The notes under the pieces: generated by a model | What the model saw: the letters and a program-made list of their open reading frames with translations, nothing else | Told to the model about the DNA's origin: nothing | Databases searched by the model: none | Made by a program: the position numbers and the translations under genes | Assembly: GCA_005223125.1 (NCBI GenBank) | Contig: NJBH01000007.1 | Span: forward strand, 1-64,000 | Direction of reading: 5' to 3' | DNA: 64,000 nt | Origin: Promethearchaeota archaeon Loki_b32 | GTDB taxonomy: Archaea > Asgardarchaeota > Lokiarchaeia > Sigyniarchaeales > SOKP01 | Shown here: positions 23,374-27,288 of the stretch, one piece after another | Numbering within the stretch: position 1 is the stretch's first letter | How the letters are laid out: each line of letters starts with the position of its first letter

Positions 23374-23496
23374 TCCTAAAAAATTTTACTAATTCCTTCG
23401 AAATTTTTAACATAAAAGCAAAAATATTTTAGTTTTTCTTTTCTTTATTCTAATTGAATATAGATTTAATTATATTAAAATTTGGTAGAGATACTT

Positions 23497-24075
23497 ATGG
23501 GAAGAAGAAAACGTAAACAAGTTTCACCGAAACGGGTAAAAAGAGTACCGAAAATTTTCACCTGTCCAGAATGCGGTGAAAAAAGTGTTAAAGTCACTGA
23601 TATTAAGAAAAAAGGTGCTTTTGCCACTGTTAAATGTGGAAATTGTGATTTAACTAAAGATGTATTAATCAATTCTATTTCAGAACCCGTAGATGCGTTT
23701 GGAGATTTTATTGATATATTTTATGCAGACCAAGAATTACAAAGATTAGAAAGAAGAATAAAAAAAATAAAAGAAGAGCATGAATGGGGTGAATTAGCAT
23801 TAGCTTATTCTATTTTATCAGATCTTTGTAAAATAAAAGCAGCTATATTATTAGATGAAGAAGATGTTAACTTAGATGAAGTTAACGATTGGAAAATAAA
23901 AAGTGAGGAATATAAGAGACTTGAAAAAGATACTATATTAAAATTAGATACCGAAGAATTAGAACGTGGAGTTCGAACTGATGAAGAATCTTTATTTACT
24001 GAAAGTGAGACAAAAATAAAGAAAGAGCGCAAAATTGAGGATATATTTGACGATCCTGGATTTTTAGAATTTTAG
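23497..24075 (+). CDS. elf1: Transcription elongation factor Elf1 with long C-terminal extension
   Basis: MGRRKRK...PKIFTCPECG...ATVKCGNC...EPVDAFGDFID is the Elf1 signature. Confidence 0.9.
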   Translation: MGRRKRKQVSPKRVKRVPKIFTCPECGEKSVKVTDIKKKGAFATVKCGNCDLTKDVLINSISEPVDAFGDFIDIFYADQELQRLERRIKKIKEEHEWGELALAYSILSDLCKIKAAILLDEEDVNLDEVNDWKIKSEEYKRLEKDTILKLDTEELERGVRTDEESLFTESETKIKKERKIEDIFDDPGFLEF

Positions 24076-24092
24076 AATTCATTAAACCGTAT

Positions 24093-25844
24093 TTAACTAT
24101 TTTGTTGTATCATTCTTGTCGTTATATTTTTGGGAATATACTTCCAGATTGGTAATTTTAAAAGATAATTAAAGAACTCATTCCGATTCATTCCTTTTTT
24201 TAATATGAGAAAACTCCAATTATGAAAAGCTAATCTATTAAATAATTTCATTAGATGGGTACCAAAAGGATTGTATTTAGATGCTAAAAAACGAGCAAAA
24301 TAAGTCCAAGGTCTTTTAGTTTGGGGAATTGATTCGGGATACACTGATTCAAACAATGGTCTATTGAAAATTTCATATATCGCTATTATTGGTAAGAGTT
24401 TATTTAGCAGTTCAGTAATGTTCTGTTCATAATTCTCATCATCTATATGGATCATTAATAATTCATTTAATTTATTTAACGCAAATTTGAACTGTCTTTC
24501 TTTGAAGGGTAACCACATTTTAGCTATAATCTCTTGTAATTGCTCTATTTTATCCATAACTTCTACTTCCTCAAAATTGAACTTATGCTTTTCTTCATAT
24601 TTTTTAATAAATGACAACAAAACTGAATTAACGTCTTGTTGTTTATAATCATCAGTTTTTTCTCTTTTTTTATTTGTTTCTTTTAAATTCCCTCTCCCTT
24701 CTTTGGAATTATGGGTTCCATGTTTATATATTGGTGTCGTAAACAATAATTCTCTAACTTTTTCCAGTAATGTCTTATAATGACCGTATATATCTATAAT
24801 AGGATATTTTTTTGATAATTTCTGAGACATTCTAGCAAATTCTTTCGCGGAATGCTTCGATTGTTCCAATCTAAATTTAATTTTGTCTTTCTTATTTAAT
24901 TTACTAATGAGAGCATTTCTCCTTTCTCTGTAGAAATTTAGCTTTTTAATTAATGTTTTATTTACGTCTAAAAGAGTTTTACCATAAGAATTGAAATCAA
25001 CACCATAATTTTTGATGATAGAATCATGAGTAATTAAGGGGAGGGATAAGATCCTGCCAACATTATTCCTTTCAATTCTCATAGCATGATCTCCGATAGA
25101 ATAAGAAAAAGTAGAATTTTGAAGAACATTATCTAGAGAAGAAAATTTACCTAATATTTTAGCCTCATTTTTAAAATATCCATGTAATAGTGTATCAATT
25201 CCCTTATATATATTATTAGCAAATTCAGAAATAATAACGGATTCAATTTCACCTGGATGATGTCTTTTAGATTTTAAACGTTTATTTCCAACTACTATAG
25301 CTTGATTGGCTCTATGACATACTGTATAACTCCATTTTAATAATGGATCAAAAATACTAGCAAGTTTAAATTTATAGTGGTAGAATTCAGGTCCAAAATA
25401 AATTGGAAAGCCAAACCCCCGTGAAGTAGAATATAGAAATTGAAATATATTTCTTACTTTTTCTCCTTTTAATAATCCGGGAAATTGAAATTGAAGCACG
25501 ATGCGAGGATAAAGTGCTTGGATCCCTAAATGCATCCACGCTTCAAAGAGTATGATGCTATCTGGAAATTTAAAAGAATCCTTCCTGTTTAAAAAATCGC
25601 CACTTAAAGAGTTTAAGGCATTTGGAAGGCTTTGAAGCCATGCTTTATTGTCTTCTATTTTTTTTAATCTTTCTTTGAATTTTCTTATGATTAATGGTTT
25701 TATTTGGTTTTGGAGTTCTAATTTTCTTTTATAATAATTATTCATGACTCTTAAAAAGGAAGTCATTTCAAGTAGTTGTCTTTGCAGATCATGAGCTACC
25801 TGAATGGTTGTATTTTTTGAGGAGATTTCTTTTGTAATATCCAA
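24093..25844 (-). CDS. Hypothetical protein
   Basis: 583-aa ORF, no motif recognised. Confidence 0.7.
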   Translation of the reverse strand: MDITKEISSKNTTIQVAHDLQRQLLEMTSFLRVMNNYYKRKLELQNQIKPLIIRKFKERLKKIEDNKAWLQSLPNALNSLSGDFLNRKDSFKFPDSIILFEAWMHLGIQALYPRIVLQFQFPGLLKGEKVRNIFQFLYSTSRGFGFPIYFGPEFYHYKFKLASIFDPLLKWSYTVCHRANQAIVVGNKRLKSKRHHPGEIESVIISEFANNIYKGIDTLLHGYFKNEAKILGKFSSLDNVLQNSTFSYSIGDHAMRIERNNVGRILSLPLITHDSIIKNYGVDFNSYGKTLLDVNKTLIKKLNFYRERRNALISKLNKKDKIKFRLEQSKHSAKEFARMSQKLSKKYPIIDIYGHYKTLLEKVRELLFTTPIYKHGTHNSKEGRGNLKETNKKREKTDDYKQQDVNSVLLSFIKKYEEKHKFNFEEVEVMDKIEQLQEIIAKMWLPFKERQFKFALNKLNELLMIHIDDENYEQNITELLNKLLPIIAIYEIFNRPLFESVYPESIPQTKRPWTYFARFLASKYNPFGTHLMKLFNRLAFHNWSFLILKKGMNRNEFFNYLLKLPIWKYIPKNITTRMIQQNS

Positions 25845-26092: not shown

Positions 26093-26539
26093 TTAACCCG
26101 ATTGATTCTTTCTTTTTGCGAATAGAGACTTAAGCTCGCCCATTATAGCCCCTCTAAGTGAAACTGGACTTGCTGGGCGACTTGGGCCTGGAGCGGGACC
26201 TGGCCCTCTTGGACCCCCTGGTGGACCTCCCGGTGGTGGTGGCGGAGGTGGACCTCCTGGCGCTCGTGCAGCTGCAGGAGCAGTTGGGGCTGGAGCTGCT
26301 GCTGGAGTTCCTCCTGATCCGGATTGAAGTGATGTGATTTGACTATTCAAAGAATTTAATTGGTTTTGTAAATTCGAAACTTTCTCGGTTACCAAGCCAA
26401 GTGACTGATCTACCAAATCGGGTATGCGTAAAACAATTGACATGATTTTTTCAATGATATCGCCAAATGCGCTCAATTTCTCTTCCAAAGGTGCTTTTCG
26501 AGTGTTATCTAAGAAGGTTGCAAATTCTTCGGCACACAT
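26093..26539 (-). CDS. Coiled-coil/polyproline protein with C-terminal VASP-FAB/WASH-C-like helix
   Basis: N-terminal heptad helix, APGGPPPPPPPGGPPGG, C-terminal RGAIMGELKSLFAKRK. Confidence 0.7.
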   Translation of the reverse strand: MCAEEFATFLDNTRKAPLEEKLSAFGDIIEKIMSIVLRIPDLVDQSLGLVTEKVSNLQNQLNSLNSQITSLQSGSGGTPAAAPAPTAPAAARAPGGPPPPPPPGGPPGGPRGPGPAPGPSRPASPVSLRGAIMGELKSLFAKRKNQSG

Positions 26540-26664
26540 TTCTACTCTTTATATCTTGTAATTTTTTATTTTTTCTATTAATTTAATAGATTTGTGTTTA
26601 ATAAATTTAAGTTTAAGCTTTACTATTTTTTTATTTAAAATAAAAAAAGAAAGAAAAGTTTTGT

Positions 26665-27288
26665 CTAATTCAATTCCGTTATACTGTCTTTTAATTTAAT
26701 CCACAATGCATTAATCTCATCTCTTACTTCAATAAATTGATAAATTTTTTTTAATAAAATATCTCGAGCTCTATCAAATTCTCTTTGAACATCGTTTAAT
26801 TGCTGGTCGAGGATGTTTAATTTATCACCATCAATTAATTTATTTTTTGCTTTTTCAACATCTAATGCTTTCTTTATTACATTTGATCTTCTATCAGCAA
26901 CTTCTGCTAGGGCATCGACAAATTCTTCTTTTTTTTGAACGAGATATTCTTTTTGTACTGCAATATCTTTAATCGCATTTAGATATGTATTGTTACCTTT
27001 GATAAAATCGTCGTTTTTTTGGATTATTTCTTTATATAACTTAACTTCCTCATCTTTAATATTAGATCTATGTTCTCGAGCAAGAGTTTGCATTTGTTTT
27101 AATACATCTCTAAAAGTTCTATTTAAAATATCCCTAGAATTATTCATTTTAGCTATATTTTCTGCGTATTTTTTTTGGGATCCGATAAGAGCGCTTTGCG
27201 CTTTAGCCAGTTTCTTAAATTGGGAGACTAATTCTTTTTCCATTTTAGCGAGTTCTAATTCATCCTCATGGGTTATAATTGGACTCAT
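26665..27288 (-). CDS. All-helical protein, BAR-domain-like
   Basis: 207 aa of long amphipathic helices; RSNVIKKALDVEKAKNKL...KLNILDQQLNDVQREFDRARD...QFIEVR resembles SNX/Vps5-BAR helices 2-3. Confidence 0.55.
   Translation of the reverse strand: MSPIITHEDELELAKMEKELVSQFKKLAKAQSALIGSQKKYAENIAKMNNSRDILNRTFRDVLKQMQTLAREHRSNIKDEEVKLYKEIIQKNDDFIKGNNTYLNAIKDIAVQKEYLVQKKEEFVDALAEVADRRSNVIKKALDVEKAKNKLIDGDKLNILDQQLNDVQREFDRARDILLKKIYQFIEVRDEINALWIKLKDSITELN

Follow-up and report, generated by a model that had tools for sequence, protein, structure and literature searches.

A 148-aa protein encoded at positions 26093 to 26539 of the window (the whole stretch of 64,000 nucleotides of Loki_b32 DNA that was analysed) is, judging by its sequence, a stand-alone copy of an undescribed module that occurs throughout the Asgard archaea in unnamed proteins. 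Members of the family share a common layout, in which a conserved N-terminal helix and a coiled coil are followed by a Pro/Gly/Ala linker and then by a near-invariant C-terminal helix. Our best reading, which we put forward tentatively, is that the protein is an oligomeric adaptor and uses its C-terminal helix to dock on actin. Asgard archaea form protrusions and crawl by means of a dynamic actin cytoskeleton. Profilins and gelsolins are the only actin regulators known in these organisms, and the absence of formin-type or Ena/VASP-type filament polymerases from them has been noted (PMC13716822). With its putatively oligomerising coil, polyproline spacer and actin-binder-like helix, the family is a candidate for a missing Asgard actin or membrane regulator. 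If it binds actin, it would fill this gap among the regulators and bear on the origin of WASP/VASP-type proteins; if it binds a membrane or some other partner, it would be a new module, specific to Asgard archaea, that connects GTPases and gelsolins with a BAR-fold protein.

The gene, the segments of its product and the adjoining region are as follows.

26093..26539, minus strand: complete CDS of 148 aa, with an ATG start and its stop codon at 26093-26095 (ORF list and sequence)
26420..26539, minus strand: residues 1-40, conserved N-terminal helices (invariant columns of the 29-sequence alignment; AF2)
26321..26419, minus strand: residues 41-73, heptad coiled coil (one long helix, AF2 pLDDT 90-96)
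26159..26320, minus strand: residues 74-127, disordered Pro/Gly/Ala linker (pLDDT <50; GC up to 69%)
26210..26257, minus strand: residues 95-110, polyproline core GG-PPPPPPP-GGPPGGP (read from the translation)
26108..26158, minus strand: residues 128-144, LRGAIMGELKSLFAKRK, signature C-terminal helix (invariant alignment columns; AF2 helix 128-146)
26540..26664, no strand assigned: AT-rich spacer of 125 nt between the BAR-like gene and the 148-aa gene (read from the sequence)
26665..27288, minus strand: 207-aa three-helix BAR-fold protein, the conserved upstream neighbour (AF2 and Foldseek)

The translation of the 148-aa ORF is exactly that quoted in a preliminary description of this DNA, and the three parts named there (N-terminal helix/coiled coil, GPPPPP tract and C-terminal helix) are all present. 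Local GC content reaches 69% over the Pro/Gly/Ala tract in a genome of about 27% GC, which argues for selection on the protein rather than chance. A spurious ORF is ruled out by the conservation of the protein and by the retention of GC-rich codons in an AT-rich genome. Read on the coding strand, the spacer upstream of the gene contains a T-run after the stop codon of the preceding gene and TATA-like A/T boxes before the ATG. A Pfam scan of the 148-aa protein returned nothing specific at E≤1.

At least 209 homologues were detected at E≤1e-3, the nearest being 86% identical, and a genome search matched the family in 228 of 400 Asgard genomes. The family is small and mostly single-copy. It is present in nearly all genomes of the order to which Loki_b32 belongs and has relatives in Thor-, Odin- and Heimdall-type lineages, most Asgard lineages being covered. 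A search for longer relatives with the family-wide alignment found none, the query being probably swamped by polyproline words. The N-domain and the C-terminal helix are separable: P0145, P0148, P0149, P0160, P0196 and P0240 contain the N-domain only, and in P0207 the C-terminal helix sits behind a coiled coil other than the family N-domain.

AF2 places helices at residues 2-15, 18-73 and 128-146, the second being a single long helix with pLDDT >90. Residues 1-40 carry the pattern AEEF..F...P.EEK..FGDI.EK.M..L.IPDL, which is not heptad-like, and probably form a binding surface. In residues 41-73 the a and d positions are occupied by L47, V50, V54, L57, L61, L64, I68 and L71. This segment is likely to mediate oligomerisation, and as to its oligomeric state, which we infer, a PDB profile search retrieved coiled coils only, mostly trimeric ones (alphabody, trimeric autotransporters, Lpp). 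The linker that follows differs in length among homologues, with insertions and deletions in both the close and the family-wide alignments. Its core consists of G95-G96, seven prolines (P97-P103) and GGPPGGP, and at least 90% of Loki-type sequences keep P100-P103. The run is retained in Loki lineages only, the longest run in many distant members being of 1-2 prolines, so that the GPPPPP tract, although present in the 148-aa protein, is no feature of the family as a whole. The earlier caveat that Loki profilins bind polyproline poorly is borne out by a report that they do not bind the VASP polyproline motif (PMC8410842). Recruitment of profilin by this run is the weakest step of our proposal.

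No other element of the family is as well conserved as the C-terminal helix. The 148-aa protein ends in LRGAIMGELKSLFAKRKNQSG, and the near-invariant consensus of the helix reads LRGAIMGELKxLFxKR (R-x-A-I-M-x-E-L-K-x-L-F-x-K-R). The preliminary description had staked its actin reading on the conservation of this helix, which is invariant in all 29 sequences of the close alignment at overall identities of 54-90%. In the family-wide alignment E135-L136-K137 are nearly invariant, and the motif is C-terminal in 58 of 99 representatives. On the motif PSSM, a single further ORF of the Loki_b32 genome exceeds 20 bits.

The same helix had been likened to the FAB motif of Ena/VASP. The motif as quoted in the preliminary description is correct when compared with the published human sequence (VASP residues 259-278; PMC10340426), and the alignment is indeed gapless, with agreement at hydrophobic, Glu, Ala and basic positions. 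The likeness is nevertheless statistically weak: the human FAB reaches only 9.7 bits on the family PSSM, on which family members score 23-52 bits. A random window attains this score with a chance of 2.6e-6 to 1.5e-5, which amounts to tens to hundreds of equal matches per eukaryotic proteome. Thor-type variants of the helix, such as ..GELQSFLARRRAA, are still nearer to the human FAB, and the human GAB scores -24 bits on the family PSSM of the helix. No L-[KR]-[KR]-[VT] (LKKV-type) motif is found in the sequence of the 148-aa protein. Neither the C-terminal 30-mer nor the LKKV segments of the Heimdall proteins matched Pfam WH2 (PF02205) in hmmscan at E≤10, and PDB profile searches with three family alignments returned generic coiled coils and no VASP, WH2 or VCA chain at E≤10. 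By eye, the anchor residues of the MIM1 motif, the PIP box and the FtsZ C-terminal peptide fall out of line with the helix, and these identities were rejected.

Parts of the module occur in larger proteins. The family HMM found the N-domain inside gelsolin and GTPase fusion proteins. P0240 combines a Ras domain (2e-38), a gelsolin domain (3e-8), the family N-domain (i-E 1.2e-14) and a second gelsolin-homology domain; the N-domain likewise lies between two gelsolin-homology domains in P0160 and P0196, where these domains match the solved Loki 2DGel (E 9e-11) and a Thor gelsolin. The gelsolin fusions have the N-domain and lack the C-terminal helix, and therefore say nothing direct about the role of that helix. 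No gelsolin with the family N-domain was found in an L. ossiferum-like genome. The whole module is located at the end of Arf/RagA-like GTPases in P0152, in P0192 and in an MK-D1-like ORF, and Loki_b32 itself encodes such a GTPase (ORF G000:C26:39123-40373, E 1e-9).

The 207-aa product of the neighbouring gene is predicted to form three helices of about 65 residues (AF2 pLDDT 88). Its top Foldseek matches in the PDB are the BAR domains of Arfaptin (TM 0.61-0.64), FAM92A, SNX1/5 and BIN2, with a best E of 4e-3; Pfam BAR gave no match, and the BAR assignment is therefore made at the level of the fold. The BAR-fold gene adjoins the family gene in all 30 loci retrieved from the same taxonomic family and, by coordinates, in further genomes, the adjacency surviving a flip of gene order and a change of orientation. 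L. ossiferum-, MK-D1- and G135-like genomes, as well as the Thor, Odin and Heimdall lineages, have lost this adjacency but still conserve the C-terminal helix. Neighbours in other lineages include a VTT/DedA protein (Odin-like) and hexapeptide-repeat proteins (L. ossiferum- and MK-D1-like), and the context in Heimdallarchaeaceae is housekeeping and uninformative (threonine aldolase-like, beta-CASP and tRNA-synthetase-like genes). Actin, profilin or gelsolin genes were never neighbours of the family gene in the other lineages looked at, which counts against the actin reading.

The fusion of the N-domain to gelsolin-homology domains, together with the conserved BAR-fold neighbour, makes a connection of the family with actin or the cytoskeleton plausible. 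In the mechanism that we propose, the N-terminal helix and the heptad coiled coil would assemble the protein into an oligomer, perhaps a trimer, and/or attach it to a partner, the Pro/Gly/Ala segment would be an extended flexible spacer, and the invariant C-terminal helix would act as a sequence-specific docking peptide. Its most likely target would be the Asgard actin (Lokiactin), to which it would bind as short amphipathic actin-binding helices of the WH2, FAB or C-helix class do. The architecture of the family, its conservation, the fusions and the gene neighbourhood are observed; that the protein oligomerises, binds actin or influences the assembly of filaments is what we infer. An oligomer would present several C-terminal helices per assembly. 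In this way it could bundle or tether filaments, or keep actin at membranes shaped by the BAR-fold neighbour, by analogy with I-BAR systems of the MIM/IRSp53 type or with Ena/VASP.

Ena/VASP proteins consist of an EVH1 domain, a proline-rich region and an EVH2 region with GAB, FAB and a tetramerisation coiled coil. The 148-aa protein resembles them in that it combines a coiled coil likely to oligomerise with a G-P5-7 run and with a short amphipathic helix that precedes a basic cluster; the proline-rich (G/A/L)P5-type runs are represented by GG-P7-GGPPGGP. However, the order of the parts is reversed, with the coiled coil (residues 41-73) on the N-terminal side. The protein starts directly with its conserved helix and is without EVH1 (WH1) at Pfam E≤1, and it contains neither a GAB/LKKV motif nor a right-handed tetramerisation domain. 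Homology is undetectable, with no VASP match in Pfam or the PDB and a FAB score (9.7 bits) below proteome-wide significance. Lacking EVH1, GAB and a C-terminal tetramerisation domain, the protein is not supported as a member of Ena/VASP.

In WAVE and WASH proteins an N-terminal helix that takes part in a trimeric coiled coil is followed by a proline-rich region and a WH2-central-acidic tail. With the WASP-family NPFs the 148-aa protein shares the order N-terminal helix, Pro-rich region, C-terminal amphipathic helix. Its relatives in Heimdallarchaeaceae insert conserved GL[KT]KVDPDEH[RK]KER and LQKAPE motifs of the LKKV type, and have a second copy of the C-terminal helix and an acidic run with a final aromatic residue, giving by eye the order LKKV-like motif, helix, acidic run. 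The L. ossiferum-like orthologue also finishes in an acidic run, of six Asp. In contrast, the 148-aa protein ends in KRKNQSG, without WH2 and without an acidic segment, and the conserved residue in the acidic segment of the WASP WCA tail is a Trp, whereas the Heimdallarchaeaceae run terminates in F.

MIM/ABBA and IRSp53 join an I-BAR domain and a proline-rich region to a C-terminal WH2 or to VASP recruitment. A comparable arrangement is seen in Loki_b32, where a BAR-fold protein is encoded beside a Pro-rich protein with a C-terminal amphipathic helix; here, however, two separate genes are involved, no SH3 domain is present, and the BAR neighbour resembles the classical BARs of Arfaptin and FAM92 rather than an I-BAR. 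Asgard gelsolins (2DGel, 1DGelX, ProGel) are linked to the family through the N-domain set amid gelsolin-homology domains in P0240, P0160 and P0196, and proteins of the ProGel type similarly combine proline-rich segments with an actin-binding domain, although the 148-aa protein itself has no gelsolin domain. From the earlier interpretation as a whole, the three-part layout and a plausible link to actin or the cytoskeleton are retained, whereas membership of the Ena/VASP, WH2 or WASH/WAVE groups is not.

The C-terminal helix might instead dock on a conserved protein other than actin, such as the BAR-fold neighbour, a GTPase regulator or the N-domain of the protein itself, the latter implying autoinhibition or head-to-tail assembly; the gelsolin and GTPase fusions would then only mark the N-domain as a general oligomerisation cassette. 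We regard this as possible but rather unlikely. It agrees with the separate occurrence of N-domain and C-terminal helix, with gelsolin fusions that have the former and not the latter, and with the sequence-specific conservation of the motif. It also agrees with the published Lokiactin co-immunoprecipitation, in which no orthologue candidate appears among the rows listed, a result that at the same time counts against docking on actin. The likely L. ossiferum orthologue is UYP45916.1, between Elf1 UYP45915.1 and UYP45917.1; its locus tag was narrowed to five candidates (GNAMCCOK_02219-02223), of which only 02219 and 02223 are among the listed published rows, both in the proteome sheet. The co-immunoprecipitated 38.1-kDa 'Arf' (GNAMCCOK_04696) was considered as a possible carrier of the module; the candidates for it near the expected position are of 31.4 and 36.3 kDa and are without the C-terminal helix. 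On the other hand, no particular partner other than actin emerged from the analysis, and conservation of the helix where BAR adjacency is lost means that the partner must be more universal than the BAR neighbour. It is unlikely, too, that the helix targets membranes as an amphipathic, polybasic helix like those of MinD, FtsA or Arf and that the protein is a membrane-anchored coiled-coil tether, with linker and helix serving in the GTPase fusions as hypervariable region plus membrane anchor. The position of the helix at the extreme C-terminus after a flexible linker would suit this role, as would its charge of +4 and the hydrophobic stripe L128/I132/L136/L139/F140 in the 148-aa protein (muH 0.29, <H> 0.27), the presence of the same tail on Arf-like GTPases, and membrane-associated neighbours in three lineages (BAR fold, VTT/DedA, hexapeptide-repeat). 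Membrane-targeting helices, however, conserve physicochemical character and not sequence. Here, amphipathicity is modest and varies across the family (muH 0.07-0.42), as does charge (z 0 to +4); the most conserved Heimdall copy has a net charge of 0 and an acidic tail, and the six Asp that terminate the L. ossiferum-like orthologue also speak against membrane targeting. Individual residues are conserved, including an invariant Glu, which is unusual for such helices. Conservation of the polar E135 and K137 without that of muH or charge is a pattern that fits protein recognition.

The family could also be a true homologue of CCDC53/WASHC3, BRK1 and HSBP1 and the seed of a larger unrecognised complex, not itself actin-binding, which is the least probable of the explanations considered. 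CCDC53, BRK1 and HSBP1, which serve the WASH and WAVE complexes as small coiled-coil subunits or assembly factors, are related homotrimers (PMC8047104) and, like the 148-aa protein, small proteins with a long N-terminal helix, but none of them has an established equivalent of the conserved C-terminal ELKxLF helix. Of the specific Pfam matches among relatives, that to CCDC53 (PF10152) recurs most often and has the lowest E, although it is borderline: it is found in 8 of 26 Heimdallarchaeaceae members, of which two exceed the gathering score (26.9 and 25.5 vs 24.6 bits), and in 7 of 45 diverse members (best 3.7e-5), and is the best Pfam match for 15 of 71 relatives, 13 of which fall below the gathering cut-off. 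The matches always cover profile positions of about 5-90. BRICK1 also appeared in a PDB profile search (E 0.74), and HSBP1 gave a Pfam match in 3 members. Against this, CCDC53 does not match the 148-aa protein at E≤1, in Pfam most members match nothing but generic coiled-coil families, and a reciprocal PF10152 search of 400 Asgard genomes missed the family genes, with nothing over the cut-off, although its first-look filter may have missed G016. Fifteen weak PF10152 matches (17-22 bits) lay at other loci, for example at G170:C6 where the family locus is at G170:C1, which makes coiled-coil cross-talk a live explanation; no match was found in 14 control genomes. The WASH/WAVE-like coiled coil of the preliminary description thus stands as a borderline likeness of some relatives, and membership of WASH/WAVE, for which PDB profile searches found no VCA chain at E≤10, is not supported.

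A decidedly unlikely extension of the actin-docking reading would make the family an archaeal forerunner of the eukaryotic WAVE/WASH-type actin machinery, that is, a homo-oligomer (possibly a trimer) with a helix homologous to CCDC53/BRK1/HSBP1/WAVE and with actin-binding tail peptides. If so, a nucleation- or elongation-promoting factor would have existed in Asgard archaea before eukaryotes arose. The tail peptides in question would be the ELKxLF helix, found everywhere, and the LKKV-type motifs and acidic run of Heimdallarchaeaceae.

The 148-aa reading frame at 26093-26539 (minus strand, ATG start) is as the preliminary description had it. Its product gave no specific match to Pfam. We predicted its structure with AlphaFold2, using 29 homologues, and obtained the following layout:

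Residues 2-15: short helix
Residues 18-73: single long helix, pLDDT >90
Residues 74-127: disordered stretch (linker)
Residues 128-146: terminal helix

The linker contains the sequence GG-P7-GGPPGGP, and its Pro, Gly and Ala codons raise the local GC content to 69%, versus about 27% for the genome. Below, N-domain designates the conserved N-terminal helix with the coiled coil, C-helix the terminal helix, and whole module both of these with the linker.

Matches to the target (E<=1e-3) number at least 209 and are 135-190 aa long. They form a conserved family without a name: named homologues are annotated as 'hypothetical protein' of Lokiarchaeota/Promethearchaeota or 'Thorarchaeota' bins, and publications covering Asgard actin regulation, motility and Arf GTPases do not describe the family. 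Profile searches detected the gene in 228 of 400 Asgard genomes, including 122/134 in the taxonomic family to which the window belongs and 13/14 in the one containing L. ossiferum- and MK-D1-like genomes; it also occurs in Thor-type and probably in Odin-type lineages (1.3-1.4-Mb genomes). When 1.84 billion representatives were searched exhaustively, 99 matches came up; apart from two low-complexity false positives, all fit an Asgard origin, and the motif forms the C-terminal end in 58 of the 99. In a close alignment of 29 sequences (54-90% identity to the query), there is little or no variation in the first 44 residues or in the C-terminal P-x-S-L-R-G-A-I-M-x-E-L-K-x-L-F-x-x-R, and the linker differs in length. 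The C-helix consensus is [LIV]-R-x-[AS]-[IL]-[MLN]-x-E-L-K-x-L-[FL]-x-[KR]-[RK]-[KR]. Among 45 diverse sequences (20-55% identity), the only near-invariant residues are E135, L136, K137 and one proline, and many distant members lack the polyproline run. The family-wide features are therefore the N-domain and the ELKxLF helix rather than the GPPPPP tract.

Parts of the module are also found fused to other domains. In two proteins from database searches (P0160 and P0196), the N-domain adjoins gelsolin-homology domains that match the solved Lokiarchaeal two-domain gelsolin (7whg, E 9e-11), a Thor gelsolin (7c2f, E 4.5e-4) and eukaryotic gelsolins. A longer cluster member, the 560-aa metagenomic P0240, contains in order a Ras domain (Pfam, 2e-38), a Gelsolin repeat (3e-8, over the cut-off), the N-domain (residues 320-386, family HMM i-E 1.2e-14), a second gelsolin-homology domain and a zinc finger. 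Judged by its sequence, P0240 is a GTPase-coupled two-gelsolin protein with the coiled coil as inter-domain linker. Other fusions involve GTPases. P0149 is a Ras-like GTPase carrying the N-domain, and P0152 and P0192 are Arf/RagA-like GTPases that have the whole module, with SLRG[AE]IMGELKELFAKR, as their C-terminus. The window's own genome encodes an Arf/RagA-like GTPase of 411-417 aa (G000:C26:39123-40373, plus strand; locus L042:1462-2712) whose final ~90 residues duplicate the whole module, from helix and coiled coil through the linker to ...ARLNVLNELKDLFSKKRRLDL (family HMM E 1e-9). An MK-D1-like genome encodes a GTPase with a C-terminal PPPPPP...NDVMSELRKVFKLRN. These fusions indicate that our gene is a stand-alone copy of a module repeatedly joined in evolution to actin-binding and GTPase domains. 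The gelsolin fusions contain the N-domain only and so have no direct bearing on the C-helix.

The C-helix had been compared to the F-actin-binding (FAB) motif of Ena/VASP proteins. In human VASP, FAB corresponds to residues 259-278 and the G-actin-binding (GAB) motif to 223-APGLAAAIAGAKLRKVS-239 (PMC10340426); FAB itself has been proposed to possess WH2-like properties (PMC3034019). Human FAB does align without gaps to IMGELKSLFAKRK of the target. Against a PSSM of 17 columns derived from 58 family helices, it scored 9.7 bits, versus 23-52 bits for family members; besides the target, the Arf/RagA-like GTPase is the sole ORF of the window's genome exceeding 20 bits. The chance of a random window reaching 9.7 bits is 2.6e-6 in composition-matched random sequence and 1.5e-5 in ORFs of the same genome, and tens to hundreds of equal matches are therefore expected per eukaryotic proteome. 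The C-terminal 30-mer did not match Pfam WH2, and profile searches of all PDB sequences (E<=10) yielded no VASP, WH2 or VCA chain; they returned coiled coils only, mostly trimeric, with BRICK1 at E 0.74. In contrast to Ena/VASP proteins, the target has no EVH1 domain, GAB motif or C-terminal tetramerisation domain. It belongs to neither the Ena/VASP nor the WH2 family, and the resemblance is at best a functional analogy.

A family match was also found in 61 of 83 genomes of a second class, one of whose families is Candidatus Heimdallarchaeaceae. Examples from the latter are:

L066:908-1846, plus strand
L065:1429-2361, plus strand
L061:982-1767, minus strand

The typical Heimdallarchaeaceae protein (~270-320 aa) consists of the N-domain, an extended Ala/Pro linker containing APNLS repeats and four conserved blocks. 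These are GGISxxDLMKAAAxLQKAPE; FSPFGVSATDIQDVRAGL[TK]KVDPDEH[RK]KER, where L, K, V and D are (nearly) invariant; SMPASxALNxEVKDALAKRKSR, which repeats the family helix and leads into an acidic run with a final F; and a terminal STKQMKEALQGELRDAFSSLLESD...EEE, a family helix with an acidic tail. Such proteins combine one to three LKKV/LTKV/LQKA motifs with two helix copies; in two genomes, the repeat ASAILEAKAKL[QK]K[AV] occurs three times in tandem. Inspected by eye, the order of these elements resembles the WH2-like, central helix and acidic elements of WASP-type tails. WH2 membership of the motifs found no support in Pfam WH2 or PDB searches, and the resemblance may serve as a lead only.

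The coiled coil had been likened to those of WASH and WAVE proteins. When 26 Heimdallarchaeaceae and 45 diverse members were scanned singly against Pfam, a majority matched generic coiled-coil families only. The lowest-E and most recurrent specific match was the WASH-complex subunit CCDC53 (PF10152), found in 8/26 Heimdallarchaeaceae members (best 7.2e-6; two above the 24.6-bit gathering score) and 7/45 diverse members (best 3.7e-5), always over profile positions ~5-90. Three members matched HSBP1, and BRICK1 had come up in the PDB search described above. CCDC53 and HSBP1, together with BRK1, are homotrimeric coiled coils that are related to one another and seed the WASH and WAVE complexes (PMC8047104). 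The window protein itself had no CCDC53 match in the Pfam scan, and a reciprocal PF10152 search of the 400 Asgard genomes gave nothing over the cut-off, only 15 weak matches at other loci. Literature searches gave no paper that connects CCDC53 to Asgard archaea. Homology of the family to CCDC53/BRK1, as suggested by these profile matches, would be possible but is unproven, and we consider it very improbable.

We then examined the genes surrounding the family gene, of which the following are discussed:

26665-27288, minus strand: 207-aa gene directly upstream of the target, predicted BAR fold (Arfaptin/FAM92-like)
L036:8309-12595, plus strand: tandem pairs after the family gene
L037:5247-7420, minus strand: tandem pairs after the family gene
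L039:4684-6958, minus strand: tandem pairs after the family gene
L033:617-1354, plus strand: Odin-like membrane-protein neighbour, VTT/DedA-type by Pfam
L034:2035-2877, minus strand: Odin-like membrane-protein neighbour

The 207-aa protein is predicted to fold into three helices of ~65 residues each (pLDDT 88). Its best PDB structure matches are BAR domains (Arfaptin, TM 0.61-0.64, then FAM92A, SNX1/5 and BIN2), and a language-model search agrees with this assignment. The BAR-fold gene is present in 134/154 genomes of the order. It adjoins the family gene in each of the 30 loci fetched from the taxonomic family of the window and, by coordinates, in more distant genera. The two genes are adjacent yet convergent in one genome (G130), and their order is reversed in two others (G131, G132). 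This adjacency, which survives rearrangement, suggests a functional link. The pair is unlinked in L. ossiferum-, MK-D1- and G135-like genomes. There, one or two tandem pairs of proteins (~300 aa and ~400 aa) are encoded after the family gene. Two L036 proteins from these pairs were tested; both gave hexapeptide (left-handed beta-helix) repeats, and there was a weak dynactin-p25-like match. The transcription elongation factor gene elf1, at 23482-24075 (plus strand) in the window, recurs beside the family gene. In L. ossiferum- and G135-like genomes it immediately precedes the family gene in the same orientation, and in several members of the window's family it is a neighbour on the opposite strand. 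In Odin-like genomes, a membrane protein is encoded on the same strand 25-150 nt upstream of the family gene; in Heimdallarchaeaceae the context of the family gene is housekeeping. None of the loci examined had an actin, profilin or gelsolin gene beside the family gene. In G128, a 570-aa actin-family protein (L038:756-2468, minus strand; Pfam Actin 3.8e-37 across the first ~220 residues, plus a large extra region) is encoded 4.7 kb away. Directly downstream of the target lies a gene for a 583-aa protein (24093-25844, minus strand) without a Pfam match, whose orthologues keep this place in many, not all, related genomes. Position ruled out the 207-aa protein as Bar1 or Bar2 of the L. ossiferum co-immunoprecipitation study. 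A 325-aa Rab-like GTPase of an L. ossiferum-like genome (L059:1614-2591, minus strand), with an N-terminal extension that is roadblock-like by eye, is encoded close to where the co-immunoprecipitated 'Arf' should be, but at a predicted 36.3 kDa it disagrees with the 38.1 kDa published for that protein.

What could the C-helix bind? Its C-terminal position and basic tail, its occurrence as the last element of GTPases and the membrane-related gene neighbours would suit a membrane anchor. However, across the family its hydrophobic moment drifts from 0.07 to 0.42 and its net charge from 0 to +4, while particular residues are retained, including the invariant Glu and Lys flanking L136. This pattern speaks more for a protein ligand recognised by sequence than for a helix that binds membranes generically, and we regard a membrane anchor as unlikely. 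Actin appears to be the best single candidate, tentatively, because the ligand should be conserved across the sampled Asgard lineages and because of the gelsolin fusions, the BAR neighbour, the FAB-like register and the LKKV-type motifs of Heimdall proteins. Another protein partner seems a somewhat weaker prospect than actin, if a little stronger than a membrane; the experimental data consulted neither show nor exclude an association with Lokiactin.

Recruitment of profilin by the polyproline tract, which the preliminary description had considered with a caveat, is doubtful. The P7 run is present in the target, but such a tract is not family-wide, and the caveat agrees with published data: the VASP polyproline motif is reportedly bound by one Heimdall and one Thor profilin but not by Loki profilins (PMC8410842).
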